DNA of 64,000 bases, from IMG/VR virus record IMGVR_UViG_3300029305_012082, positions 1 through 64,000 of that record, one strand, 5' to 3'. Both the position numbers and the translations under genes were made by a program. This document shows, piece after piece, positions 21,748-37,286 of this stretch. This DNA comes from a virus. Lineage: Duplodnaviria > Caudoviricetes. The stretch's first letter is position 1, and each line of letters begins with the position of its first letter. The notes beneath the pieces were generated by a model, which saw nothing but the letters and a program-made list of their open reading frames with translations, ran no database searches and was not told the DNA's origin.

Positions 21748-22140
21748 ATGAATACACATAAACTGATGGCAACCGATCTAGGAAAAGCATACTACATCAC
21801 TTGGCCTCAATTCGATCGCATGATTGACGATTGGGCAAAGAGTGCTGTAGCGAAGCATGTTGATGGAGAAGGAATCAGAGAGGATCGGGATATCTACATT
21901 CATATCAAGGAGCTGACAGAAGAGGATAAAGCTACCGTATTTTCTCTTTGTTTGAAATACGCCGGCTATATTGACGACGAACCCGAAGATGTGCGGACTG
22001 AATTAGTTCTTCCGATTGAAGCAACTCTTTCTATTGTCCGTGAATGCATCGGAAAGGAAATCGGTGCAACCACAAATTATCTGATAGCAGACGAGTACGG
22101 TGTATTTCTGTTTGAAAACCGCCTTGCTGAAGGGAGATGA
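21748..22140 (+). CDS. Hypothetical protein
   Basis: AAGGA RBS. Confidence 0.6.
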   Translation: MNTHKLMATDLGKAYYITWPQFDRMIDDWAKSAVAKHVDGEGIREDRDIYIHIKELTEEDKATVFSLCLKYAGYIDDEPEDVRTELVLPIEATLSIVRECIGKEIGATTNYLIADEYGVFLFENRLAEGR

Positions 22141-22144
22141 CCAT

Positions 22145-22735
22145 ATGTACAAAGATGTTTGTGGAATCCTGCAAGACGGAAAATGCGGTGACTTCAAAAT
22201 TGACCATTTCGAAGTCACAAAAGGCAACTTTCGTTATGCATTGCAAGGGATCTCTCCCGGACGGTACGTTCGGCTTACCAAGAATGGTGAAGTAGTTATG
22301 AGTGACACTGATATGGAAAAGCGCACAAACGCAGAGTTTATCATAAGGGCTCATGGAGATGTTATTGTTGGAGGGCTGGGAATCGGCTTGATTTTGCTTG
22401 CTATTCAAGATAAAGAGGATGTGACTTCCATCACCGTTATAGAAAAGAACATGGAAGTAATTTCTTTGGTTATGCCGTATTTAGGTCCTCATCTCAACAA
22501 AAAAGTAAAAGTCGAATATGGAGACGTCTTCACTTGGCGACCTCCTAAAGGTCGAAGATACGACTGCATCTACATGGACATCTGGCCGTTTATCAATCGA
22601 GATGTTTATGAGGAAGAGATGGTTCCTCTGAAACGAAGATACGGGCATTACCTGAAACCTCTTTCCCAAAGCCCGAACCGGTTCAACATGGCATGGGCAG
22701 AGTATAACGCTAAGAACGAGATCAGACTTGTATAA
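22145..22735 (+). CDS. Class I SAM-dependent methyltransferase-like protein
   Basis: VIVGGLGIG motif I, ITVIEK, GDVF, YDCIYMDIW. Confidence 0.75.
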   Translation: MYKDVCGILQDGKCGDFKIDHFEVTKGNFRYALQGISPGRYVRLTKNGEVVMSDTDMEKRTNAEFIIRAHGDVIVGGLGIGLILLAIQDKEDVTSITVIEKNMEVISLVMPYLGPHLNKKVKVEYGDVFTWRPPKGRRYDCIYMDIWPFINRDVYEEEMVPLKRRYGHYLKPLSQSPNRFNMAWAEYNAKNEIRLV

Positions 22736-22822
22736 TCCAATGACAACTCAATATAAAATAAGTATAATATATTGACTTTTTCACATACTTATTATACGAT
22801 AAGTATGAAAGGAGCGATATTC

Positions 22823-23104
22823 ATGGCAAAAGTAGCAACAAGCATTTCTTTAGATACGGAGATCAAGGATCAGGCCGTTTCCTTATTGAGAGAACTTGGA
22901 CTTGATCTCTCGACCGCAGTGGGCATGTTTCTCAGGCAGACAATTCGTGAACAGCGCATCCCCTTCGATGTTTCTCTGAATACTCCCAACGCCATCACAG
23001 CAGCTGCACTGAATGAGACTGATGCTATGCTGAACAACCCCGAAGCATATAAGAGGTACAGATCATTTGCGGAACTTCTCAAGGAGGTAGAAGCGGATGC
23101 TTGA
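22823..23104 (+). CDS. dinJ: RelB/DinJ-family antitoxin
   Basis: IKDQAVSLLRELGLDLSTAVGMFLRQ...IPF...PN; own promoter TTGACT-17-TACGAT at 22772-22800. Confidence 0.9.
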   Translation: MAKVATSISLDTEIKDQAVSLLRELGLDLSTAVGMFLRQTIREQRIPFDVSLNTPNAITAAALNETDAMLNNPEAYKRYRSFAELLKEVEADA

Positions 23105-23369
23105 AATTGTCGCTTCTAACCAGTTCAAGAAAGACTTGAAGCAGGCGGTTAAGCGTGGGCATAAGATGCACCTCCTCGAAGAAGTGGTTGACAAACTCGC
23201 CTCAGGAGAAGTTCTAGGTGATAAGTACCGAGATCATCGTTTGATCGGCAATTATGCAGGATTTCGAGAGTGCCACATTGAACCGGATTGGCTGCTAATC
23301 TACCAGATCCGGGAGCACGAGCTTATTCTTCTTCTGTTCCGCACTGGAACCCACAGCGACTTGTTCTGA
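23097..23369 (+). CDS. yafQ: YafQ-family mRNA interferase toxin
   Basis: FKKDLK, YRDHRL.G, RECHIEPDWLLIY, RTGTHSDLF. Confidence 0.93.
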   Translation: MLEIVASNQFKKDLKQAVKRGHKMHLLEEVVDKLASGEVLGDKYRDHRLIGNYAGFRECHIEPDWLLIYQIREHELILLLFRTGTHSDLF

Positions 23370-23374
23370 AATGC

Positions 23375-23398
23375 AAAGCCCTCTTCGGAGGGCTTTTT
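23375..23398 (+). terminator. Intrinsic terminator
   Basis: AAAGCCCTC-TTCG-GAGGGCTTTTT. Confidence 0.85.
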
Positions 23399-23500: not shown

Positions 23501-23570
23501 AAATGTCAGCAAATGTCATCGGATGTCAGCAAATGTCATTGATAGTCACCGTTTCCATAGTGTATTTTGT
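23501..23570 (+). promoter_or_regulatory. Putative late promoter with 10-bp direct repeats (activator sites)
   Basis: AAATGTCAGC AAATGTCATC GGATGTCAGC AAATGTCATT GATAGTCACC upstream of the late operon. Confidence 0.55.
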
Positions 23571-23659
23571 ACAACAGAAAATAGGATGAACCGCAGGGGG
23601 CGGGGATTCCAGTGAAGCGTCGCTTGTGAGCGGCGTTTTTCTGTTTTGGAGGGTTACGA

Positions 23660-24289
23660 ATGGAGAAAAGAATTGAGCTTTGCAGGGTTAAGGCCGGCGA
23701 CATCAAAACTGGCTTTGGAAATCCCAGAAAGATCAACAAAAAGAAGCTCGAAGAGCTTGAACGCAGCATGCTCGAAAACGGTGATTTCGGCATCTATCTG
23801 CTGGACGAGAAGAACAATATTATCGGCGGCAACCAGCGGCTCAAGGTTGTGCTGAAGAATTTCGGTCCAGACCACGAACTTGACTGCAAGCGATTGATCG
23901 GTTATACCGAGGCAGAGCTGAGAGCAATCAATATCAAAGACAACACACACGCTGGCGAATGGGATCTGGAAGCCCTCGCGGATTGGACAGCAGACCTTAC
24001 TGTTGATCTTGGGATTAAAGCAAAAGATGATTCCACCGAGGAACGTTCCATCAAAGAAATGGAACTCATCCACTACGAGAAATACGACTATGTTATGATC
24101 GTCTGCCGGAGCGAGTTGGACTATAACGATCTAGTACGGCGGCTTGGTATCGAAGGTGCAGAGGTCAGCATAGCAAAAAGAAAGATCAAAGCAAGAGCCA
24201 TCTGGTACGATCAAATGAATGCAATGATCGTTCCCATTGAACCGGATGCTGCTCCAAGCTCAGTAGAGGAAGGAACTGATGAGGAGTGA
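23660..24289 (+). CDS. ParB/Srx-like N-terminal domain protein
   Basis: NPRKI...L..SM, IIGGNQR, N...GEWD. Confidence 0.8.
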   Translation: MEKRIELCRVKAGDIKTGFGNPRKINKKKLEELERSMLENGDFGIYLLDEKNNIIGGNQRLKVVLKNFGPDHELDCKRLIGYTEAELRAINIKDNTHAGEWDLEALADWTADLTVDLGIKAKDDSTEERSIKEMELIHYEKYDYVMIVCRSELDYNDLVRRLGIEGAEVSIAKRKIKARAIWYDQMNAMIVPIEPDAAPSSVEEGTDEE

Positions 24290-24918
24290 AGAAACTCGTC
24301 ATAATTGGGGCAGGAGGTCACGCAAAGTCAGTCCTTGACTCTGTCGACCCTGAGTTCTTTGAAATTTACGGCTTTGTCGATGAAGTTAAGGTCGGGAATT
24401 ATATGGGCAAACCGATATTCGGACATGATGTTACCAATGTTCCTGACTTCGCACAATGCGTGTATCTTATTGCGATAGGAGATGTTCAAGTACGGAAGCG
24501 TTGGTATGAAACGCTAACTGGGTTGAACTTAGAACTTGTCAACATCATTGACAGATCCGCTCTTGTCTCCCCTTCAGTAAAAATGGGATGCGGAAACTTC
24601 ATCGGTAAGCTTGCTGTCGTGAACGCAGGCTCCGTTCTTGGAGATAACAACCTCATAAACACAATGGCACTTATCGAACACGAGAGCCGAATTTTCAATC
24701 ACACAAATCTATCCACGAAATGCACCGTCAATGGAGATGTAGTCGTAGAAGACTGCGTATTTCTTGGTAGTGGTGCAACGTGCAATGGTCAATTGACCCT
24801 TGGAGAAAACTGCATTGTTGGTTCAGGCAGTGTTGTTATACGAGATGTCGAAGCCGGGACAACTGTGGTCGGGACACCGGCAAGGGTTGTAAAGCCGGCA
24901 AAAGGAGGCACTGAATGA
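24286..24918 (+). CDS. NeuD/PglD-family sugar acetyltransferase
   Basis: IIGAGGHA, left-handed beta-helix hexapeptide repeats, VVGTPAR. Confidence 0.9.
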   Translation: MKKLVIIGAGGHAKSVLDSVDPEFFEIYGFVDEVKVGNYMGKPIFGHDVTNVPDFAQCVYLIAIGDVQVRKRWYETLTGLNLELVNIIDRSALVSPSVKMGCGNFIGKLAVVNAGSVLGDNNLINTMALIEHESRIFNHTNLSTKCTVNGDVVVEDCVFLGSGATCNGQLTLGENCIVGSGSVVIRDVEAGTTVVGTPARVVKPAKGGTE

Positions 24919-25577
24919 GAGTTCTTGTAATCGCTCCACATCCAGACGATGAAGTTCTTGGTGTCGGTGGAACAATGATAAAAAGAGTTCTTCAGGGGCA
25001 CGAAGTCCATGTGTGTGTTGTCACTCGTGGATATCCTCCGATGTTTGACCAGAAATACATCTCTCAAGGAGTCAGAGAGTGCCGGCTGGCAAATGCGCTG
25101 CTTGGAACGAGCGGAATATATTTCCTGAGAAAACCTGCTTCCTCCATGGATACCATTTCCCTTGTAAGCGTAATCGAGCCACTTAGAAACATCATCCTTG
25201 AACTGAAGCCCGATGAAGTTTATATTCCGCATCGAGGTGATGTGCACAATGACCACAAAGCAGTCGTTGATGCAGCCATGGTTGCTCTGAGACCAAAGCA
25301 TAGCCACAAAGTTTGCAGGATTTATTCTTATGAGTGCCCCTCTGAAACAGGTTGGGATATTCCTGCAGAATACAACGCTTTTATTCCAAATGTTTTCGAA
25401 GACATCTCAGACACTTTGGATTTGAAAATACAAGCCATGGAAAAGTATAAATCACAGATTGAGAAATATCCTGGCGCAAGGAGTCCCGAAGCAATAAGGG
25501 CACTTGCCGTTCACAGAGGAACGACGGTTTATACTGCAGCGGCAGAAGCGTTCAGTCTAGTCAGAGAAATTAAGTGA
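24915..25577 (+). CDS. PIG-L/LmbE-family de-N-acetylase
   Basis: APHPDDE and H.DH motifs. Confidence 0.9.
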   Translation: MRVLVIAPHPDDEVLGVGGTMIKRVLQGHEVHVCVVTRGYPPMFDQKYISQGVRECRLANALLGTSGIYFLRKPASSMDTISLVSVIEPLRNIILELKPDEVYIPHRGDVHNDHKAVVDAAMVALRPKHSHKVCRIYSYECPSETGWDIPAEYNAFIPNVFEDISDTLDLKIQAMEKYKSQIEKYPGARSPEAIRALAVHRGTTVYTAAAEAFSLVREIK

Positions 25578-25584
25578 GGAACAT

Positions 25585-26277
25585 ATGGTTTTATCTTCTC
25601 ACCAACCGAACTTCGTTCCCTACATGGGTTTTTTCTATAAACTCATGCAAAGCGACATTGTCGTTATGTCAGAGGACGTGCAGTTCTCAAAAAAAGGAAT
25701 GCACAACTGGAACCGCATCTACACGCAGAATGGAGTTAGGAAGCTAACCGTTCCGGTTCATGCTCACCATGATATGCCTCTTTCAGAGATATTTGTAGTC
25801 GATCACAAATACTCCATTCCCAAGATTGCCAAATCTTTGGAGCAGGAGTATAGAAAGGCTCCCTGCTTTGATGAAGGCATGGAACTTGTTGCATGGATGG
25901 CTAGTCATGTTTATCGAAGCAATCTCAAGATGGTTGACCTCAACGTGAATTTGATTTCCTTCGTAATGGACAAGTTCGATATCCGCACAAAGATCCTTCG
26001 ATCCACAACTGATTTGAAAGTGTCCGGGCATAAGGATGAGCGGATATTCCAGATGTGTGAGCAGACCGGTGCTGATGTCTACTACAGCGGTACCGGAGCA
26101 AAGGCTTATCATCAAGAAGAAGAGTATGAGAGGCGGGGGATATGCCTGACATACTCAGATTACAAGCCGGTAGAATATAATCAGATCCACGGTTGTTTCG
26201 AACCGAACCTTTCTGTGATCGACTATATTTTCAACAATGGCTATACACTTCCGGAAGGATGGAGGCGTAACCAATGA
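25585..26277 (+). CDS. WbqC-family protein
   Basis: HQPNFVPYMGFF, D.VQF, NRI, YYSGTGAKAY, LSVID. Confidence 0.88.
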   Translation: MVLSSHQPNFVPYMGFFYKLMQSDIVVMSEDVQFSKKGMHNWNRIYTQNGVRKLTVPVHAHHDMPLSEIFVVDHKYSIPKIAKSLEQEYRKAPCFDEGMELVAWMASHVYRSNLKMVDLNVNLISFVMDKFDIRTKILRSTTDLKVSGHKDERIFQMCEQTGADVYYSGTGAKAYHQEEEYERRGICLTYSDYKPVEYNQIHGCFEPNLSVIDYIFNNGYTLPEGWRRNQ

Positions 26278-26987
26278 ACGGAAACCCACTGTTCGGGATA
26301 TACGTTCCTAGCTACAAAAGGTACGAGACAACCTGTACTTTTGAGATTTTGGAATACTGCACTTATGTGGTGCGGAAATCTGAAGAAGAGAAATACAGGG
26401 CTAGGGGAATTAAAAGCATCTGGGCCGTCGAAGATCATCTGATCGACAATCTGGTAAAGGTTGTCAACTACATTGTTGATAATGCTCCAGAGCAGATCAT
26501 TTGTATGATTGACGACGACGTTCCTAATATGGTGTATCGCATGGACACCAACGAGAAGTTCTCCGATCCAGAAACTGTCACTGCGGAATTCGAGAGGATC
26601 GGGCAGCTTATGCTTGATCTTGGAATCGGATACGGGGCAGTTGATGCCAGCATGGCACCTTGGAACTACAACTCGGAATTTGAGTTCAAGGGGACAAGCG
26701 GTGGTATGAGATGGTTTAATAAGGCTGCGTACAAGTCTCGCTTCCTTGAAGAGGTTTATCACAACTGTGATTTGGACGTGGTCCTTCACGAATTGCTCGT
26801 AAATCGAATCATTCTCAAGCCCAAGTACCTTTGCACTCACGGAGGCACAGATACGAATGCCGGCGGAAACTCCAGCAAAAAAAGATCTGAGCAACGAGCA
26901 TGTGCGGATATTATGAGAGCCAAATGGGGCAGATACTTCAGCTACAACTTCGACACAAACAAGCCAGCAATTAGAGTAAAAAGGTGA
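26274..26987 (+). CDS. GT-A fold glycosyltransferase, TET-associated (TAGT/GREB1-like)
   Basis: IYVPSYKR, MIDDD, D.D..L, TNAGG, KWG motifs. Confidence 0.72.
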   Translation: MNGNPLFGIYVPSYKRYETTCTFEILEYCTYVVRKSEEEKYRARGIKSIWAVEDHLIDNLVKVVNYIVDNAPEQIICMIDDDVPNMVYRMDTNEKFSDPETVTAEFERIGQLMLDLGIGYGAVDASMAPWNYNSEFEFKGTSGGMRWFNKAAYKSRFLEEVYHNCDLDVVLHELLVNRIILKPKYLCTHGGTDTNAGGNSSKKRSEQRACADIMRAKWGRYFSYNFDTNKPAIRVKR

Positions 26988-27086: not shown

Positions 27087-28379
27087 TTGGCTAGATACAA
27101 CCCGACAACAAGAAGCGGCTTCAATATGTTCGATATGGCAAGCATGCTTCAGAAAGCAGTAAGAAGAGGCGACACCGAAAGAGCCGGCTTGGCAGCTTAT
27201 GAGCTGTATGGAAGCTATCAGTCTATGATGTGGAAAAGAATTCTTACCATTTCCGCAGAAGACTGCTGGGGTGTCCTCACGAAGGAACTCGTTCATCTCC
27301 GCAAGATGGACGAAATGCTGAACGCTGGTAAGACTGGATATCATAAGGACCCCAAATATGTTTCCATGGCAATTGCGTTGTTGTGCAAGGCGAAGAAAAG
27401 CAGAGATGCTTGTTATTTCGCCTGTAACTTCATTCTTGCAGAAAACCCCAGACACGAAATCGAGTGTAGTGCAGAGGAGGTAGAGAGAGTCCGAAGCACA
27501 GTTGACGTTATCCCGGGAGAGGCGTTCTCTCTCGATGTTATGCGATCCCCTCGATTGATCGAAGAACTTTTCTCTCCTCTTGTCGAGGAGCAAGCAGGCT
27601 TATTCGCAACAGCAAGACCTGCTGCAAACAGGAAGAAGTTTGCTGAGACAACCCCCGATGGATCTGACCCTTATCTCGTTGCATCTGTTCTCGTGAAGGC
27701 TGTTTCCTATCGAGATATGGAAAACATCGGATACGCCTCTGGTCAGCTGAGATCGTTCCATAGGGATATTCTTTGGAGAACCCTACTCGCAACAAATATT
27801 CTTTTCTGTTCCGGTCGCCTTACAAGCGAGATCGTAGGTCTGAAGTTGACGGATGATATGGTCAACGGCAGAAAGAAGCCTGAAGAGCGAGATGAAATCT
27901 TTATTGCAAAGGCTCTGATGAACATCTGCTATGATCTGAGCGATGACTTTGGTTCCGTAGAGGCATATCAGGCAGTGCATCTCTATGAGTTAATCGAATG
28001 GAGCAAGTACAAGATCGGCAGTGTCGCTGACTGCAAGCTTCCTGATGGCATCATTCCCGAATGGGTGTATGATGTCCACACGATTAGAGGAAAAAAAGCT
28101 GGAAAGACTGATTGGGGCATGAACTTGGTGGAACAGGAAGCCCTAAATCCTCTGCAGATTGCATTTTTCGATGAAGGAAGTTGGGCACCTCGATACGACT
28201 ACAAGCATGAACACAACATGTGTTCCCAGCTTGAGTATGACCTAAGTCTGGAATACAGAAAAGATCATGATGCAAACCCCACACCTCAGTTCATCGAAGA
28301 GAGAAGAGTAGAGGACAACAGCCACGGGAATTTCAAAGAGACTTTTGCGTTCCTGTCGTCTAGATACTTGGGGGTTTAA
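27087..28379 (+). CDS. MgsA/RarA C-terminal-like protein lacking the AAA+ ATPase
   Basis: SMLQKAVRRGD...WKRILTISAEDC...KKSR; IPEWVYDVHT.RG; no Walker A seen. Confidence 0.65.
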   Translation: MARYNPTTRSGFNMFDMASMLQKAVRRGDTERAGLAAYELYGSYQSMMWKRILTISAEDCWGVLTKELVHLRKMDEMLNAGKTGYHKDPKYVSMAIALLCKAKKSRDACYFACNFILAENPRHEIECSAEEVERVRSTVDVIPGEAFSLDVMRSPRLIEELFSPLVEEQAGLFATARPAANRKKFAETTPDGSDPYLVASVLVKAVSYRDMENIGYASGQLRSFHRDILWRTLLATNILFCSGRLTSEIVGLKLTDDMVNGRKKPEERDEIFIAKALMNICYDLSDDFGSVEAYQAVHLYELIEWSKYKIGSVADCKLPDGIIPEWVYDVHTIRGKKAGKTDWGMNLVEQEALNPLQIAFFDEGSWAPRYDYKHEHNMCSQLEYDLSLEYRKDHDANPTPQFIEERRVEDNSHGNFKETFAFLSSRYLGV

Positions 28380-28381
28380 CC

Positions 28382-28612
28382 ATGGAAAGCAAAAGCGACA
28401 CCGTGAGAAGGCTGGTTGCATCCGGTCAGTATAAAGCTGCTCTTAGGATTGCCAAAGACTTTCGCCTGGGCATCACAAAAGAACAGGCCGGCAATTTGAA
28501 ACGCGGCTATGAATGTCTGGTTCATCCTGCTTTCTATCAATCAATTGGCGTAGATGTAGACCACGCTGTCTCAACCGGCGTGGCTACCCTGAAACTCCTT
28601 TACGGAACATAA
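28382..28612 (+). CDS. Hypothetical protein
   Basis: 76-aa ORF followed by a hairpin at 28639-28673. Confidence 0.65.
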   Translation: MESKSDTVRRLVASGQYKAALRIAKDFRLGITKEQAGNLKRGYECLVHPAFYQSIGVDVDHAVSTGVATLKLLYGT

Positions 28613-28692: not shown

Positions 28693-29325
28693 ATGGAAGG
28701 AACAAATACCCCGAACGATATCGTTGAATTAGGAAAGAAAACACGGTTTCAAAGCGGCGAACAAGCGGCGGAAATGGGACGGCGTGGGGGCATTAAATCA
28801 GGCGAGGTAAAAAGGGCGAGAAGGACGGCAAGAGAGGCTGCTCAACGGCTTCTCGACATGGCTGCAACCGGCAAGATGAAGCAGAATCTCATCGAACTTG
28901 GGTATAAGGAAGATGACCCCGATGGGATTAAGAACATCGACGTCCTCGTGGCTCGTTTGATGGTTCAGGCCGCCGGAGGAAACCTTCAGGCGTCCGAGAG
29001 ACTTACCAAGATCGCCGGCTACGATTATGAAGAAAACCGTGCCGAACGAGAAAGCATTAACGCAGATAACCGGAGGAACCAAGAAAGTTTGGCTCGTCTT
29101 CAGGCGATGGAAGCAGGGGTGATCGGAAGGCACTCCACTACCGTGTTGGATGGAGACGAAGATGGTGCTGTCGAAGACGTCTTCATATATCTTCCTGACA
29201 ACGGGCGGGACAAAGATCTTCAGAAGGTCGCCCCGAAAGATATGCAAGATGATTTTGATCTGGATGATGATGGAATTCCTGAGCTTGAAGTCGAGGCAGT
29301 CGAACACGATGTCCCCGAAGAATAA
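28693..29325 (+). CDS. Terminase small subunit (putative)
   Basis: AAEMGRRGGIKSGEVKR motif and IYLPDNGR; position just before TerL. Confidence 0.7.
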   Translation: MEGTNTPNDIVELGKKTRFQSGEQAAEMGRRGGIKSGEVKRARRTAREAAQRLLDMAATGKMKQNLIELGYKEDDPDGIKNIDVLVARLMVQAAGGNLQASERLTKIAGYDYEENRAERESINADNRRNQESLARLQAMEAGVIGRHSTTVLDGDEDGAVEDVFIYLPDNGRDKDLQKVAPKDMQDDFDLDDDGIPELEVEAVEHDVPEE

Positions 29326-29342: not shown

Positions 29343-30743
29343 TTGGCTATCGTCCTGAAACCCCAGAAGGGTCCTCAAGAACGATTTCTTTAGCTTGCCT
29401 CATCTGCAGATATTGTAATCTACGGCGGAGCTGCTGGTGGCGGCAAAACCTACGGACTGTTACTTACTCCCCTTCGTTATAAGAATGTTCGAGGTTTTGG
29501 CTTTACCGTCTTCCGTCAGAACTTCAATCAGATCTTTTCTGACGGTGGTCTTTGGGATACCTCATCCAATATGTATAGCAGCATAAAAGGTGCTATTCCC
29601 AAATTTTCGAGAGGCAAGTGGATATTTACCGATAAAGACGGCCGACAGATGTCCAAGGTCACTTTTGCCCATATAGAGAAAGAGGATTCTCTAAAAAAAT
29701 GGCAGGGCGCACAGTTGTGCGGAATAGGATTTGACGAGCTGACCCACTTTTCGGAGAAGACGTTTTTTTATATGCTGTCCCGAAATAGATCTACCTGTGG
29801 TGTCACACCATTTGTTAGAGCCACTTGCAATCCGGATGCAGACAGTTGGGTTGCGAAATTCATTGCATGGTGGATAGATCAGGATACCGGATATGCCATT
29901 CCCGAGCGGAGCGGTGTTATCCGGTATTTTATTCGCCGCAATGAGGAGATCTATTGGGCAGACACAAAAGAGGAATTGTGGGAGCAATTTGATCTCACAA
30001 CCCCAGAAGAAAAAGATGAACCTAAGTCATGTACCTTCATCAAATCAGAACTGACTGACAATCAGGAACTCCTTAGGGTGAATCCTGGTTATCTGGCGAA
30101 CCTGAAAGCTATGTCTGAGGTTGATCGAGAGAGACTTCTGCACGGTAACTGGAAGATCAAAGCCGCAAGCGGATTGTTTTTCAAACGGTCTCAGGTTGAG
30201 GTCATTGACGTTGTACCGAAAGACATCCAAGCCCTTTGCAGAGCATGGGATATTGCAGCGACAGCAGAAAAAGGAACAGGAGACCCCGACTACACATCTG
30301 GTGTTCTCATGGGTATCAGGAAAGACAAGACGGTTGTTGTTCTGGATGTTATCAACCAAAGAATAAAAGCGGCCGATGTCAAAAACCTCATATACAACAC
30401 AGCCGTATCCGATCGAGCAAAATACGGAAATAAATGTCGTGTTCGGCTTCCTCAAGATCCGGGTGCCGCAGGAAAGATCGTAGCATCTACCTATGTGAAA
30501 ATGCTTGCTGGCTTCTCTGCTAAAGCCGTCCCCGTTTCGGGCAGCAAGCAGCTTCGTGCAACACCATTTGCAGCTCATTGGCAAAGTGGAAACGTTCAGG
30601 TGTTGGCAGCATCTTGGAACGACGCTTACTTCACTCAGCTTGAATCGTTCCCTGAGTCGAAACACGACGATATGGTTGATGCAAGTGCGGATTCTTTCAA
30701 TGACTTAACATCGTCCAGCTTCAATGTAGGAAATCTACTGTAA
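29343..30743 (+). pseudogene. terL: Terminase large subunit with in-frame TAG at codon 17 (29391-29393)
   Basis: TTG start after GGGGTG; MAIVLKPQKGPQERFL*LASSADIVIYGGAAGGGKT in frame with FDELTHF, ATCNP, RAWD.A and HDDMVDA. Confidence 0.85.
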
Positions 30744-30814
30744 ATAAATGTACCGTTCGGCAGCCACCCGTTGGATGCTGAACTCAGAATTACCAGAAAG
30801 AGGTGGCAGGAGAT

Positions 30815-33800
30815 ATGGGTGCATCGAATAACCAATCAGATCGCATCAGAGCATATGCGAAGCTGATTGAGGCACAGACAGGAAGAGCTGTCAGACCATT
30901 TCGCAAGGATGGGTATGTAAATCTCCTTAACCGATATGGGACTGCCAAAGATTCGGCTGAACAGTACCGTTTTGTTGCCGAGCCGATGATACCCGATGAC
31001 ATGCTAACGATGCATTACGAGGGCAACGGCCTGTTTGCCAAGATCATAGACGCTCCCGCTGAAGAAGCCGTCAAACACGGATTCAAGCTGGCAGATATTT
31101 CAGACGAGCAAACCGAAGCGTTCTACCAAGAAGCTCTGGACGAGCTTGATTGGGAAGAAGTCTTTATGACTGGTATCAAGTGGGCAAGACTCTTCGGCGG
31201 TGCAATAGGCGTTATGCTTATCAATGACGGAGGAGCACTTGAAGATCCTCTGAATTGGAAGAACATCAAGTCAATTGATGACATTCGCATCTACGACAGA
31301 TCTGTTATCCAACCGGATTATCAGAGCATGTACACATATAACAGGGAAGACCCCTTCCGAACAAGAGGAAGCAGACTTGGAACTCCCGAAAGATACTTTG
31401 TCAGCAGTAAGTACGGAAACTTCGTCGTCCACGAGAGTCGCTGCCTGCTATTCCAGAACGGTATCCTCCCGGAAAACTGTACGAATTCGATCTATCAGTT
31501 TTGGGGAATTCCCGAATATGTTCGTCTCCATAGAGCGTTACGGGATGCCGAGATAGCCCATGGAACAGCCCCCAAGATGCTGGATAGATCCGTACAGGCT
31601 GTTTACAAAATGAAAGACCTTTCTGCTGAATTGGCAACCGAAGAAGGCGAAGGAAAGGTTCTTCGAAGACTGCAAACCATAGATATGGCTCGTGGTCTTC
31701 TGAACAGCATAACGATTGATAGCGAGGGCGAAGACTATGACTTCCGCACATTCCAGTTTAGCGGCGTGTCTGATGTCATAGATGCAACGTGTAATTTCTT
31801 GTCAGCACTCTCGAACATTCCTCAAACTATTTTGTTTGGAAGATCACCTGCAGGAATGAACGCAACTGGCGAAAGCGATCTGGAGAATTGGTATAACTTT
31901 GTTGACAGAATTCGTGCAAAGAACATCCGAAGCAACCTTCGTTACTTGCTTTCTGTAATCTTCCAAGCTGGTGTTTCGACTGGTGAAATTAACGAAGTTC
32001 CCAAGATCAAGATCGAATTCAATCCGCTGTGGTCTTTGAGCGATGTAGAACAAGCTGATCTCGACAACAAACGGGCAAACACCGAGTTGGTGAAGGCACA
32101 AACCGCACAAGCATACATCGACATGCAGGTCTACGATCCAAGCGAGATCAGAAAGAAGCTTGCCCAAGCAAATGACTTCGAAATCGATGATGTAATTAGC
32201 GAAGAGGATCTGGAAGAAGATTTCTTTGCTTCTTTGGAAGAAACGGCTGAACCTACAACTAGGTTGGCTGCAAACCCCGACGCTGTCCACGAGACAAAGA
32301 CAGCGGCTGAAGGTAGTACGCCTACGAATGCGCCGGCAGCAACGAAGCTTCCTCAGGATATGACGGCGCAGGAAATCGGAGAGGTAGCAAAGAACACCGA
32401 TGAAGATGATGCAGTGTGGAATCCTTTTGGCGTTGGCGTTCTTGTAATAAAGGATGGAAAAATTCTTACTGGAACGAGGCACAATGACTCCGGATATGGA
32501 CTCATCGGAGGCCCCGGTGGTCATGGAGAAGAAGGTGAAAGCCCTGAAGAGGCAGCTTTTCGTGAAACCGAGGAAGAATTCGGTATCAGCGCAAAAGAAC
32601 TGATCCCCATTGGATTAGGCCCTTTTGAACCCGAAAGTGGGCTGCAATCTCATCTTTTCATCTGCACAGAATATGACGGTGAACCCGACTGTGTTGATAT
32701 GGAGATGGTCAATCCCAAATTCCGCACCTTGGAAGAATTGGAACAGCTGGATGCGTCCCTGTTCCCACCGTTCAAGGACAGCTTAGAGATCCTGAAAAGG
32801 GAACTCTGTGGAAAACGGGATGACGGTGGCCCCGGCTCCGGTAACTGGGGACATGCTGGTAGACCCGGTAAAAAGGGTGGCTCTTCAGGAGGTGGCGGTG
32901 CACATAACCGCATGGGATCTTCTGAGGAAGGATATACTTCCTTCTCCAAGGAAAAAAAGAAGATGGCAAAGCCGCACAAGCTCTCTCACGAAGAACTTTC
33001 CAAGTGTCCCAATGGTACTGTCATCGCTGGCATGGCTGGTCACTACAAAAAAGCCAAGATTGAAGTTTGGAACAACGAGACGTTCGACTATGAATTTAAG
33101 GAAGGCTTCGTCAGCGATGACTGGGGAGATTTCCTTGAAATCGATCAGGTAATTTCTGCTGCCGGTAACGATTCCTATGGTCTCGCAATTCCCGACAGCG
33201 CCAACAAGAACTACCTCAAACCGAAGGGAGATCCTTTCTCTGACGAACGGAGAACCAACGCATTCAAGGCATCTGAAGCTCGTGATGCTGATGACCTGCT
33301 CAGAGAGAAAAGTGGACATATTTGGCGAGGACTGGATGATGCATCCAAAGATGCCCTCGTTGGATACACGGGCGAAACATACTTTGATATAAACAGCGGC
33401 TTACGAAATGGCTATAATGTATCAGACAGCATCCGGAAAGACACGGAACTCTTGACAAATGCAATTTCTCAATCTGTTCTGGATAGAGACATGTATCTGT
33501 TCCGTGGCACTAGCAGCAGCGCGGCAGAGAAACTTTTCGGCTTAAAATCTGGCGATCTCGCTACTTGGAGCGGTCAGATCGAAGATCTGAGCACATTGGT
33601 CGGAACACGAGGTATCGACAACGGCTTTTTGTCCTGCGGAACGTCTGAAGGCAAAGGATTCACCAGCCGAGATGTCCAGTTGAAGATATACTGTCCTGCC
33701 GGAACACAGGCACTTTACGCCGAACCCTTCTCTGCATTCGGACGTGGCGATCAGCGAAGCTGGGATGGTATCAGCAAGCAGAATTCCTTCTCTTCTGAAA

Positions 33801-34438
33801 ACGAAACAATCCTTCAAAGAGGATGTGAGCTGCGTATTGTTGGTGCGGAATGGTCTGGAAACAAGGCTATTCTGGAAGTTGAAGTGCTATCCCAGATGAA
33901 TAATACCATCAAATCAGATGGAGATGACCTAGATGGCTTCTCAAAATCATCGAATCCTGATAATCTCGAAAAACATCTTGACTTTTACGGTCAATCAGCT
34001 ACGATAAAGTCACAAGATAACTTCGATGGCGGCTCCGGCTCCGGAAACCATGGACACAGAGGTGTTAAGGGTCAACGGGGAGGATCTGCAGCAAAGTCCT
34101 CCCATCCCAAAGTCACAAAGTTCACAACCCAGAATGGGAGAATGAAGATTACTTCAGATCTTAAAGTCAAAGCGAGTAAATCTGGGAAAGTATCTGTTAC
34201 GATAAAAGCGGGACAGGAAATCGAAGGGATTTATTCTTTTGCTGGGAAGGGGTCGAATGCAAATCTTGTGGTATCCGGCACACTGTCCAAACAATATGGA
34301 GGCAAACCGAAAGACTGGTCCCACTTGTGTGGTTATGCAACCGTTGTCAATTCAAACGGAAGCCAAGAACGGGCGGAGATCCACTGGTTTGAGCATGAAA
34401 CGGTAGGCCAGATAAATTTCAAAGTTAAAAAAAGGTAG
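30815..34438 (+). CDS. Portal protein (DUF1073-like) fused to Nudix hydrolase, ADP-ribosyltransferase and a C-terminal putative toxin domain
   Basis: Portal motifs RLFGG and IPQTILFGRSPAGMNATGESD; Nudix box GHGEEGESPEEAAFRETEEEFG; ART motifs Y...IN..LR, LFRG, GFLS, ENE; C-terminal AEIHWFE. Confidence 0.85.
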   Translation: MGASNNQSDRIRAYAKLIEAQTGRAVRPFRKDGYVNLLNRYGTAKDSAEQYRFVAEPMIPDDMLTMHYEGNGLFAKIIDAPAEEAVKHGFKLADISDEQTEAFYQEALDELDWEEVFMTGIKWARLFGGAIGVMLINDGGALEDPLNWKNIKSIDDIRIYDRSVIQPDYQSMYTYNREDPFRTRGSRLGTPERYFVSSKYGNFVVHESRCLLFQNGILPENCTNSIYQFWGIPEYVRLHRALRDAEIAHGTAPKMLDRSVQAVYKMKDLSAELATEEGEGKVLRRLQTIDMARGLLNSITIDSEGEDYDFRTFQFSGVSDVIDATCNFLSALSNIPQTILFGRSPAGMNATGESDLENWYNFVDRIRAKNIRSNLRYLLSVIFQAGVSTGEINEVPKIKIEFNPLWSLSDVEQADLDNKRANTELVKAQTAQAYIDMQVYDPSEIRKKLAQANDFEIDDVISEEDLEEDFFASLEETAEPTTRLAANPDAVHETKTAAEGSTPTNAPAATKLPQDMTAQEIGEVAKNTDEDDAVWNPFGVGVLVIKDGKILTGTRHNDSGYGLIGGPGGHGEEGESPEEAAFRETEEEFGISAKELIPIGLGPFEPESGLQSHLFICTEYDGEPDCVDMEMVNPKFRTLEELEQLDASLFPPFKDSLEILKRELCGKRDDGGPGSGNWGHAGRPGKKGGSSGGGGAHNRMGSSEEGYTSFSKEKKKMAKPHKLSHEELSKCPNGTVIAGMAGHYKKAKIEVWNNETFDYEFKEGFVSDDWGDFLEIDQVISAAGNDSYGLAIPDSANKNYLKPKGDPFSDERRTNAFKASEARDADDLLREKSGHIWRGLDDASKDALVGYTGETYFDINSGLRNGYNVSDSIRKDTELLTNAISQSVLDRDMYLFRGTSSSAAEKLFGLKSGDLATWSGQIEDLSTLVGTRGIDNGFLSCGTSEGKGFTSRDVQLKIYCPAGTQALYAEPFSAFGRGDQRSWDGISKQNSFSSENETILQRGCELRIVGAEWSGNKAILEVEVLSQMNNTIKSDGDDLDGFSKSSNPDNLEKHLDFYGQSATIKSQDNFDGGSGSGNHGHRGVKGQRGGSAAKSSHPKVTKFTTQNGRMKITSDLKVKASKSGKVSVTIKAGQEIEGIYSFAGKGSNANLVVSGTLSKQYGGKPKDWSHLCGYATVVNSNGSQERAEIHWFEHETVGQINFKVKKR
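33978..34005 (+). promoter_or_regulatory. Internal promoter TTGACT-16-TACGAT inside the portal fusion gene
   Basis: Exact family match, followed by AAAGTCA as at 34649. Confidence 0.65.
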
Positions 34439-35825: not shown

Positions 35826-35900
35826 GTCGTGGTAGATCAGAAGGTAGATCACCGGGAAGGCATAGCCCGACAGTCGCAGGTTCAAGTCCTGCCCACGGCA
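35826..35900 (+). tRNA. Atypical/pseudo tRNA (enlarged CAT-containing loop)
   Basis: Acceptor GTCGTGG/CCACGGC, D-stem GATC, T-arm GCAGG-TTCAAGT-CCTGC; irregular anticodon arm. Confidence 0.6.
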
Positions 35901-36003
35901 CAACTCCCGGAAGCGGGGCTATTTTCTACTCCTTTGTAACTTGACGGCTCGGAAAAGACGAGAAGTGCTGTGTAGCGTGGTTGAGCTACACAGTGCGCCT
36001 TAT

Positions 36004-36088
36004 GGGGCAGTGGCGAAATGAAAACGCTGGGGACGATTTCCTCTAGTGCTGTTGCACCTTGTTGGTTCAAATCCAACCTGCCCCACCA
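36004..36088 (+). tRNA. Atypical class II tRNA-like gene with a shortened anticodon loop
   Basis: GGGGCAG/CTGCCCC-ACCA, T-arm GTTGG-TTCAAAT-CCAAC, variable arm GTGC-TGTT-GCAC. Confidence 0.6.
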
Positions 36089-36188
36089 CCCACGAAAGTG
36101 GGATCTTCCTCTCTTTTTCTTGTTTTGACAGCTCGGAATAGACGGCAATGCCCTGTAGAATTCATTCGCCTCTGCAGGGCAAACATAC

Positions 36189-36264
36189 GCTGCTATAGCT
36201 CAGTCGGTAGAGCAGCTGATTTGTAATCAGCAGGTCGTCGGTTCGAGTCCGACTAGCAGCTCCA
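36189..36264 (+). tRNA. tRNA-Thr(TGT)
   Basis: Canonical cloverleaf, anticodon arm CTGA-TTTGTAA-TCAG, CCA end. Confidence 0.93.
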
Positions 36265-36367
36265 CTGTGGTGTGGTGAACCACAGAGGCTTTCATTTCTC
36301 ATTCTTCTGGCAGCTCGGAAAGACGAGCAGTGCTGGACGATCCTCCTATTCGCCCAGCACATCATAT

Positions 36368-36441
36368 GCCGCAGTAGTTCAATGGCAGAACACCAGCCTT
36401 CCAAGCTGGTTGCGCGGGTTCGATTCCCGTTTGCGGCTCCA
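36368..36441 (+). tRNA. tRNA-Gly(TCC)
   Basis: CCAGC-CTTCCAA-GCTGG anticodon arm, CCA end. Confidence 0.92.
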
Positions 36442-36666
36442 AATCCGAGGTGTACATGGGCCGTTGCCGACATAAGGCAGCGCAAGCCGGTTGCCGCGCT
36501 ACACGATAGGAGAAAACAGCTGGGTCGCTCCCATCCGACAGCCGGACGGAATACAGACCGATAGTACTGTGACACGACGGACAGCGACGCCGAACAGGCC
36601 AGAACGAGAGGCCGGCAGACACGCCGCCAGCTGACTTAGAGAGCAGAAAAGATGCGTGTCCGATAT

Positions 36667-36741
36667 AGGGGTGTCGCCAAGAGGAAAGGCACGGGACTTT
36701 GACTCCCGTATTCGCAGGTTCGATCCCTGCCATCCCTGCCA
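36667..36741 (+). tRNA. tRNA-Gln(TTG)
   Basis: CGGGA-CTTTGAC-TCCCG, CCA end. Confidence 0.92.
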
Positions 36742-36854
36742 AGGACATATATGTCCTTACCAAGAGCCGAAAACAACCTGCTTGCGCGACAACGACTGCG
36801 TACCACGCGGGAACAGTGTAAGCGGGTTCTTTCGGTAATTGCCAACATTGAAAT

Positions 36855-36942
36855 GGGAGCTTCGCCAAGCGGTGAAGGCATCGGTCTTGAAAACCGACAG
36901 GGCAGTAATGTCGCATGGGTTCGAATCCCTTAGCTCCCGCCA
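36855..36942 (+). tRNA. tRNA-Ser(TGA)
   Basis: TCGGT-CTTGAAA-ACCGA, long variable arm, GCCA end. Confidence 0.88.
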
Positions 36943-36967
36943 AAACCAACAGTGATGAAGATTTGAC

Positions 36968-37050
36968 CTCCGCATGAAGGAATGGTAGACTAACTTGTCT
37001 CAAAAACAAGTGCCATCGGCGTCCCGGTTCGAGTCCGGGTGCGGAGACCA
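36968..37050 (+). tRNA. tRNA-Leu(CAA), divergent
   Basis: CTTGT-CTCAAAA-ACAAG, variable arm, ACCA end. Confidence 0.8.
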
Positions 37051-37209
37051 GCCGGTATGCTTCATCTAGACATAGTGTTGGGCGACTGTGACCCGGACTC
37101 TCGGAGTCCTCCTTCCAAAGAAAATCGCAGTCTGATCTTAAAGTGAGGCCGCTTACCCTTGTGGTGGAAAAGTAGCGGGAAAGAACAGAGGCGGGGCTGT
37201 TCATTTCGT

Positions 37210-37286
37210 GGGCCTTTAGCTCAGCGGGTCAGAGCCTCCGGCTCATAACCGGATCGTCCACGGTTCGAATCCGTGAAGGCCCACCA
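37210..37286 (+). tRNA. tRNA with CAT anticodon (Ile2 or Met)
   Basis: TCCGG-CTCATAA-CCGGA; GGGCCTT acceptor resembles Ile2. Confidence 0.88.

Follow-up and report, generated by a model that had tools for sequence, protein, structure and literature searches.

A ParB-like protein, a TAGT-like glycosyltransferase and an MgsA_C-like protein form the conserved core of a terminase-proximal phage module with interchangeable tailoring cassettes

The closest described counterparts of the locus analyzed here are the post-replicative sugar hypermodification clusters of phages, in which a 5mYOX (TET/JBP) enzyme and/or a C5-methyltransferase is combined with a glycosyltransferase (GT) of the GT-A or GT-B type (bioRxiv 10.1101/2023.12.21.572611; PMC13229309). 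In these clusters, ParB-like proteins activate the phage T-dioxygenases, and the neighbors are often glycosyltransferases and terminases (PMC13229309); a ParB partner and adjacency to terminase are frequent, not universal, features. Fusions between ParB-CTPase folds and DNA methyltransferases are also frequent and show a strong enrichment in prophage regions (PMC12704722). Here we describe a module beginning at position 23660 of a 64-kb stretch of DNA (the window), which is the left part of the 104,687-b IMG/VR provirus record IMGVR_UViG_3300029305_012082. The module shares with the hypermodification clusters a viral GT-A/TAGT transferase with an R...DDD pattern, a probable ParB-fold partner, sugar-modifying genes, the frequent adjacency to terminase, and modular diversification. 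Unlike them, the provirus has no 5mYOX, no thymidylate-synthase homolog and no C5-methyltransferase, and thus none of the base-preparing enzymes that define the clusters. A constant MgsA_C-like partner is present here, and the tailoring reactions are predicted to be de-N-acetylation and amide ligation, in place of the epimerization or extra sugars found there. If the hosts are strict anaerobes, as we infer, the O2-dependent dioxygenase route would be unlikely.

Three other systems resemble parts of the module. The T-even beta-glucosyl-HMC alpha-glucosyltransferase (HMC, hydroxymethylcytosine; PHROG 842; PMC13390438) works on DNA-borne substrates and belongs, by profile and fold, to the same family as the transferase described here. 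It adds a second glucose to glucosyl-5-hydroxymethylcytosine (5hmC) derived from pre-replicative hydroxymethyl-dCTP (hmdCTP), whereas the module has no hmC pathway and its sugar is probably an N-acetylhexosamine (HexNAc). The mycothiol (MshA-MshB-MshC-MshD) and bacillithiol (BshA-BshB-BshC) pathways follow the same order, namely, transfer of N-acetylglucosamine (GlcNAc), de-N-acetylation by a PIG-L-family enzyme, ligation of an amino acid, and optional N-acetylation. The module differs from them in possessing a GT-A/TAGT enzyme and not a GT-B enzyme, WbqC or ATP-grasp and not MshC/BshC, and scores far below the equivalog cut-offs; its acceptor is probably a polymer and not inositol or malate. 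The third system is a bacterial GT4-WbqC-LmbE operon that carries a prolyl-tRNA synthetase (ProRS) paralog and tRNA-ProX. As presented in a figure legend (PMC10404621, Fig. 2 legend), it contains the same trio of transferase, PIG-L-family enzyme and WbqC, a hint that the substrate of WbqC may be an activated amino acid. The legend presents it as a cellular operon beside murG with a GT4 transferase, and lists neither a ParB nor an MgsA_C-like gene; the paper gives WbqC no functional role.

Five intact open reading frames (ORFs) on the + strand occupy positions 23660-26987 and are translationally coupled, with three 4-nt overlaps and one 7-nt gap at their junctions. A preliminary description of this DNA had recognized these five genes and their order before terminase. 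The ORFs lie on the + strand exactly where it had placed them; profile matches, readable motifs and the fold of the transferase agree with the identities it assigned; and the gene of the large terminase (TerL, 29343-30743) follows with three genes intervening. The five-gene set it took as the unit, in contrast, was not supported, because the MgsA_C-like gene at 27087-28379 had been overlooked and the three O-antigen-type enzymes constitute only one cassette. The genes of the module and the small gene that follows it are as follows.

23660-24289, + strand: ParB-like (probably ParB/Srx-fold) protein (PHROG 498, 1.8e-18; PHROG 620, 5e-18)
24286-24918, + strand: NeuD/PglB/VioB-family sugar N-acetyltransferase with a left-handed beta-helix (PF17836, 7e-16; PF00132 hexapeptide repeats)
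24915-25577, + strand: PIG-L/LmbE-family de-N-acetylase (PF02585, 2.6e-23, 83.4 bits against a cut-off of 28.2)
25585-26277, + strand: WbqC-family protein (PF08889, 9e-60, 202.6 bits, residues 7-220 of 230)
26274-26987, + strand: TAGT-family GT-A glycosyltransferase (TAGT profile, PHROG 842, predicted fold and motifs)
27087-28379, + strand: MgsA_C-like partner of 430 residues (TTG start at 27087 behind an AAGGAGG ribosome-binding site)
28382-28612, + strand: basic protein of 76 residues, pI 9.5, usually found after the MgsA_C-like gene (48-63% identity in most loci)

The conserved unit was defined by comparison of related loci. Those collected with the transferase as the seed, 19 from IMG/VR and four from bacterial metagenome-assembled genomes (MAGs; Acutalibacteraceae, Lachnospiraceae, and Peptostreptococcaceae), all share the same neighborhood. 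A survey seeded with the ParB-like protein added 78 new IMG/VR loci, in which cassettes were called by tblastn with two reference sets; unrecognized cassette genes may exist. A TAGT-like gene followed the ParB homolog in all 78 loci, and an MgsA_C-like gene followed the transferase in 73; of the five exceptions, at least three lie on contigs that stop at the transferase or shortly after it. The conserved core is therefore the ParB-like protein, the TAGT-like transferase and the MgsA_C-like protein, and the remaining enzymes are interchangeable cassettes. The most common cassette was PIG-L + WbqC (28 of the 78 loci), followed by PglD + PIG-L + WbqC, the type in the window (17). No cassette was present in 12 loci, where ParB directly abuts the transferase. 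ATP-grasp was combined with a pyridoxal phosphate (PLP)-dependent decarboxylase in 11 loci, with PIG-L and the decarboxylase in five, and with PIG-L in two; the other three loci carried one further type each. The module was always located upstream of TerL, and the trio was found ahead of two unrelated TerL/portal families.

The type of cassette tracked the clade of the transferase. A quick maximum-likelihood tree built from 63 different transferase sequences showed eight changes of cassette against a mean of 36 after shuffling, a contrast that is inflated by relatedness. All but one of the PIG-L-bearing types fell in one large group of 41 rows, which was weakly supported (SH-aLRT 80), and the loci without a cassette formed a single clade with full support. 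The tree also indicated that ATP-grasp replaced WbqC beside PIG-L at least twice. Within the ATP-grasp/decarboxylase lineage (L029-L035 compared to L025), the decarboxylase and ATP-grasp proteins are 52-69% and 63-79% identical, respectively, and the ParB, transferase and MgsA_C-like proteins are 88-96% identical. The faster divergence of the tailoring enzymes than of the constant genes fits diversifying selection or cassette exchange.

The module is common in metagenomes, where the transferase forms 241 clusters at 90% identity and 263 at 50%, and rare per species genome: among 399 genomes sampled from the class to which MAG G001 belongs (Clostridia), one or two contained it. The bacterial genomes carrying relatives are gut-type Clostridia MAGs. 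The cluster had no megablast match among known phage genomes, the transferase had no tblastn match in 50,697 phage records, and a search of the known phage records for WbqC gave only three weak matches.

The AlphaFold2 (AF2) model of the transferase has a high confidence (pLDDT, the predicted local distance difference test, of 93.9), and its best matches in BFVD are viral TAGT-domain proteins (TM-score 0.75-0.85, E down to 8e-18). One of them (TM-score 0.75), a protein of Klebsiella phage PKO111, is annotated as a T-even-type beta-glucosyl-HMC alpha-glucosyltransferase, and the transferase also matched PHROG 842 (9e-11). Cellular GT-A enzymes (such as WrtF, AvpGT, RmlT, and TarP) matched only at a TM-score of about 0.5. 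The sequence contains an invariant DDD (80-82) and D166-x-D168; R16 and the DDD correspond to two of the three motifs reported for the proven phage DNA GT-A enzymes (bioRxiv 10.1101/2023.12.21.572611). TarP, the top Protein Data Bank (PDB) match of those proven enzymes in the same study, is also among the PDB matches of our transferase. The Pfam TAGT profile (PF20691) was matched by 57 of 60 aligned homologs, with a best value of 6e-21. Since these homologs match TAGT and the best matches of the model are viral TAGT proteins, the assignment of the 26274-26987 product as TAGT-like, based on sequence and model, appears secure despite its own weak Pfam score.

Some longer homologs of the transferase were considered as Rosetta-stone fusions. 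Fragments of GT2, DegT or scaffold proteins were seen in them, and several seem to result from the merging of gene calls. In the metagenomic homologs P0262 and P0277, a fragment of the transferase is joined to a DegT/EryC1 sugar aminotransferase or a GT2 domain. These joins are probably merged neighboring genes, and they hint at further cassette types (4-amino sugars or second sugars) beyond those counted in the survey.

The ParB-like protein had no match in Pfam (PF02195) or NCBIfam. Its top PHROG, PHROG 498, represents the ParB domain of DNA methyltransferase fusions, and the NPR and GxxR motifs are kept across eight homologs. The sequence suggests an N-terminal NTP-binding-type domain followed by a conserved C-terminal domain of approximately 80 residues. 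The position of the gene relative to those of PIG-L and PglD varies among the loci.

The 27087-28379 protein gave no match in family profile searches, including none to an AAA+ module. In its AF2 model (pLDDT 87), a pair of helical domains resembles the MgsA/RarA C-terminal domain (PF12002; PDB 3pvs, 2r9g, and 8g28), with VIA alignments to MgsA C-terminal fragments giving Z of 7.8-8.9 and root-mean-square deviations of 1.9-2.3 over 100-105 residues. The helical domain is thus present twice. The protein differs from MgsA/RarA in lacking the defining AAA+ ATPase module, and for this reason we rejected MgsA orthology; it also possesses a unique, irregular and highly conserved C-terminal domain with an invariant H-T-x-x-G-x-x-x-G-K-T-type motif. 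Single-repeat relatives keep three invariant cysteines and the C-terminal motif. A hidden enzyme was not supported either: Foldseek found only the MgsA_C domain, and the iron oxidases BTG13 and PaD aligned at VIA Z of 6.3-6.7, below the noise level for helical proteins. In the ESM Atlas, the protein sits among mostly viral stand-alone MgsA_C-like proteins. Because of its strict linkage to the transferase, we treat the MgsA_C-like protein as the partner of that enzyme. The Atlas neighbors also suggest that stand-alone MgsA_C-like proteins of 180-360 residues form large, mostly viral clusters, and for one such cluster the phylum most commonly listed is the giant viruses (Nucleocytoviricota). The 76-residue protein encoded at 28382-28612 had no family match.

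The tailoring enzymes of the window are well recognizable. The acetyltransferase exceeded the cut-off of TIGR03570 (186.3 against 160.8 bits) over residues 3-200, which cover the N-terminal PglD domain and the hexapeptide beta-helix. A NeuD/PglD-type gene occurs in 17 of the 78 ParB-seeded loci, and the enzyme appears dispensable because it is absent from the 28 loci with PIG-L + WbqC. In the PIG-L protein, the HPDDE and HxDH metal-binding motifs are both intact; the nearest NCBIfam models are BshB1 and BshB2, both matched below the cut-off (58.3 against 182.5 bits for BshB1, TIGR04001). PIG-L enzymes strip the N-acetyl group from GlcNAc glycosides, as seen in MshB, BshB and the teicoplanin deacetylases. 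The structural neighbor of WbqC in the ESM Atlas is a WbqC cluster (TM-score 0.91).

WbqC and PIG-L travel together in the module, and ATP-grasp ligases stand in for WbqC beside PIG-L in sister loci. Beyond phages, PIG-L was located no more than 3 kb away from five of the 20 WbqC genes in a set of 401 Bacillota genomes, compared with a rough expectation of about 0.1, and such chromosomal pairs occur at loci without ParB or TAGT. Because WbqC and ATP-grasp ligases alternate at the amide-forming position, WbqC is likely to be an amide-forming transferase that joins an acyl or aminoacyl group to the freed amine of the sugar; the five PIG-L-adjacent genes and the GT4-WbqC-LmbE operon (PMC10404621) lend this independent support. 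The preliminary description had suggested that an amino sugar is attached to DNA, de-N-acetylated and re-acylated. The co-travel of PIG-L and WbqC and the replacement of WbqC by ATP-grasp give comparative support to this order of reactions, and the DNA substrate is still argued from family and context.

The gene identities, the intact motifs, the folds of the transferase and its helical partner, the strict co-occurrence and the swapping of cassettes are observations; the sequence of reactions, the identity of the donor and of the acyl group and, most of all, that of the acceptor are what we infer. The transferase would first move a HexNAc onto the acceptor, drawing on a nucleotide sugar of the host that is most likely UDP-GlcNAc or a different UDP-HexNAc (UDP, uridine diphosphate); a host donor is suggested because the module contains no genes for sugar-nucleotide synthesis. 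The PIG-L enzyme would then take off the N-acetyl group, WbqC would join an acyl, probably aminoacyl, group to the free amine, and the NeuD/PglD-type enzyme would N-acetylate the new amine, yielding an N-(acetyl-aminoacyl)-hexosamine. The acceptor is most likely the replicated DNA of the phage itself. The ParB-like protein, and perhaps the MgsA_C-like protein as well, may bring the transferase onto DNA or activate it there ahead of packaging, and the injected genome would be shielded from host nucleases.

We hold with moderate confidence that this presumably late-expressed module decorates the phage's own DNA, which is the likeliest of the targets considered. DNA is favored because of the TAGT family and fold, the resemblance of the ParB domain to those of DNA methyltransferase fusions, the precedent of ParB-dependent DNA-modifying enzymes in phages, the place before terminase, and the solubility of the proteins. 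Other observations weigh against it. No match to TET/JBP (PF12851), thymidylate-synthase homologs (PF00303) or C5 methyltransferases (PF00145) was found in the 104,687-b record, so that the earlier statement that no TET/JBP or hydroxymethylase is visible holds well beyond the window; N6/N4 DNA methyltransferases were also absent from the whole record. At the minimal-core locus L098, no base-preparing candidate appeared among ten scanned proteins, five of which had no family match. PHROG scans of the early region matched replication-initiator, helicase-loader, single-stranded DNA-binding protein (SSB) and recombination genes and turned up no DNA polymerase or nucleotide-metabolism gene. The incorporation of a non-canonical nucleotide is therefore unlikely, and the phage appears to rely on host replication. 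We know of no characterized DNA glycosyltransferase that does not need a pre-made hydroxyl, that is, 5hmC, 5-hydroxymethyluracil (5hmU) or 5-hydroxycytosine (5hoC). The survey of phage GTs regarded GT contigs without a base-preparing partner as less obviously DNA-directed; "orphan" GT contigs broadly of this type were numerous in its count and were left unanalyzed (bioRxiv 10.1101/2023.12.21.572611). On the side of the transferase, the window's own sequence scored below the gathering cut-off of PF20691 (7.7e-4, 19.9 against 27.5 bits), and none of the longer homologs is fused to a DNA-binding domain. A more specific proposal is that the trio glycosylates phage DNA directly, without a hydroxymethyl or hydroxy precursor base, at an exocyclic amine, a ring or carbonyl oxygen, or the backbone; we consider this doubtful.

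A target other than DNA is somewhat unlikely. The enzymes would act on a virion or packaging protein or on an envelope polymer of the host such as wall teichoic acid, altering recognition or superinfection as prophage TarP does, and the ParB-like and MgsA_C-like proteins would serve packaging or some other role. Two comparisons of the transferase speak for this possibility and against DNA. TarP, its structural neighbor, is prophage-encoded and decorates wall teichoic acid (bioRxiv 10.1101/2023.12.21.572611) and is accompanied among the PDB fold matches by other teichoic-acid and polysaccharide GT-A enzymes, and GREB1, a TAGT-domain protein, O-GlcNAcylates a protein (PMC7968844). The recruitment of the tailoring enzymes from cellular glycan pathways, with WbqC/PIG-L pairs at chromosomal loci lacking ParB and TAGT, the missing base-preparing enzyme and the adjoining toxin-antitoxin moron point in the same direction. 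Against such a target stands the linkage of the transferase in 78 of 78 loci to a ParB-like protein that is nearest to the ParB domains of DNA methyltransferase fusions. The genes overlap and are co-oriented with the packaging genes, and are not near the attachment site as conversion genes usually are. The module proteins are all soluble, without hydrophobic segments, and include no membrane or flippase components, and viral TAGT proteins are structurally much closer to the transferase than cellular GT-A enzymes are.

The lack of a recognizable small terminase near TerL, the shifting place of the ParB gene relative to PIG-L and PglD, and the evident mobility of the cassettes could alternatively be explained if the ParB-like, MgsA_C-like and 76-residue proteins were packaging accessories, for instance, for DNA recognition of the small-terminase type, with the sugar genes being a mobile moron inserted between them. 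We regard such an incidental association as improbable, since the ParB subfamily was never found without the transferase in the 78 loci, including the 12 in which the two genes abut without a cassette, and since the trio travels together among phages whose TerL/portal families are unrelated, which would be unexpected for lineage-specific packaging factors. The order of the enzymes, which mirrors BshA-B-C and MshA-B-C-D, and the BshB1 and BshB2 models nearest to the PIG-L protein raise the further idea of a soluble product, for example, an aminoacyl-glucosamine conjugate resembling bacillithiol or a nucleotide sugar in modified form. This is very improbable: the PIG-L score is far under the BshB cut-off (58 against 182 bits), the transferase is a viral TAGT GT-A enzyme and not a GT-B enzyme of the BshA/MshA type, 12 loci have the transferase and no tailoring enzyme, and the linkage to ParB would be left unexplained. 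Decoration of phage DNA remains the reading that we prefer.

The left end of the window encodes a serine integrase, regulators, Exo/RecT, DnaD/DnaC-like loaders, RusA and SSB. A RelB antitoxin/YafQ-type toxin pair (22772-23369, with the YafQ gene ending at 23369) with a terminator of its own immediately precedes the module, and a RelB homolog occupies the equivalent place in a few relatives (L004 and L005). Farther upstream, positions 22100-22735 encode a protein of 211 residues matching PHROG 15480 ("methyltransferase", 2.5e-22), which had no Pfam or NCBIfam match and no counterpart among the matches in the first 19 related loci. The following elements occupy the gap before the ParB-like gene.

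23375-23396, + strand: terminator-like hairpin closing the RelB/YafQ pair (9 pairs followed by a T run)
23539-23568, + strand: promoter-like site (consensus match) just upstream of the ParB-like gene
23614-23639, + strand: 11-bp hairpin with a T run, upstream of the ParB-like gene

The preliminary description had placed the genes at the head of the late operon. This is plausible, given a 290-nt upstream gap with two terminator-like hairpins and a promoter-like site, and the elements at 23539-23639 are possibly a regulated start of the late operon, although they are consensus matches whose count is not above the shuffled expectation. The further designation as packaging-linked is a matter of the position of the genes.

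Downstream of the 76-residue protein are the packaging genes.

28693-29325, + strand: acidic protein of 210 residues (PHROG 2412), upstream of TerL
29343-30743, + strand: large terminase TerL (TTG start at 29343 by alignment with relatives)

In some relatives, the acidic protein and TerL form a single ORF of 607-629 residues (L008, 9921-11744; L025, 10900-12789). Judging from this arrangement, the acidic protein may be a small-terminase-like protein or an N-terminal domain of TerL; profile scans recognized no classical small terminase near TerL. Codon 17 of the TerL frame, at 29391-29393, is a TAG that lies shortly ahead of the Walker A motif, and the next ATG, GTG or TTG occurs only at 29571. 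L018 and L006 have a frame break at the identical spot, with a GTG restart overlapping the TAG, and L001, L008, L020 and L021 read straight through. We rejected TAG recoding as a general explanation, because TAG ends 11 of the 76 long + strand ORFs and no suppressor tRNA is present. The stop could reflect a defective prophage, re-initiation or some recoding.

A fusion at 30803-34438 joins the portal protein to NUDIX and ADP-ribosyltransferase domains, and positions 35826-37286 hold eight phage tRNA genes (Cys, Pro-GGG, Thr, Gly-UCC, Gln, Ser, Leu, and Met). That an aminoacyl-tRNA drawn from these might be the donor of WbqC is pure speculation, prompted by the bacterial GT4-WbqC-LmbE operon, in which an aminoacyl-tRNA synthetase and a tRNA are encoded as well (PMC10404621).

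The swapping of cassettes provides a natural experiment: the predicted products differ by defined masses, and the hypothesis is thus directly testable by mass spectrometry. If the target is not DNA, the strict linkage to ParB will itself need a new explanation. If the target is DNA, the module would represent a widespread family of phage genome decoration systems that operates without a TET-like or thymidylate-synthase-like step, and amino-sugar and aminoacyl chemistry would join the known repertoire. ParB-fold proteins would gain a second role as partners of DNA-modifying enzymes. Should direct glycosylation prove true, it would constitute an oxygen-independent route suited to phages of anaerobes, with the cassettes building cationic or acylated amino-sugar adducts by a chemistry without described precedent. 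A DNA target would also affect the restriction, CRISPR targeting and sequencing of gut phage DNA, and the module could supply enzymes for DNA labeling.

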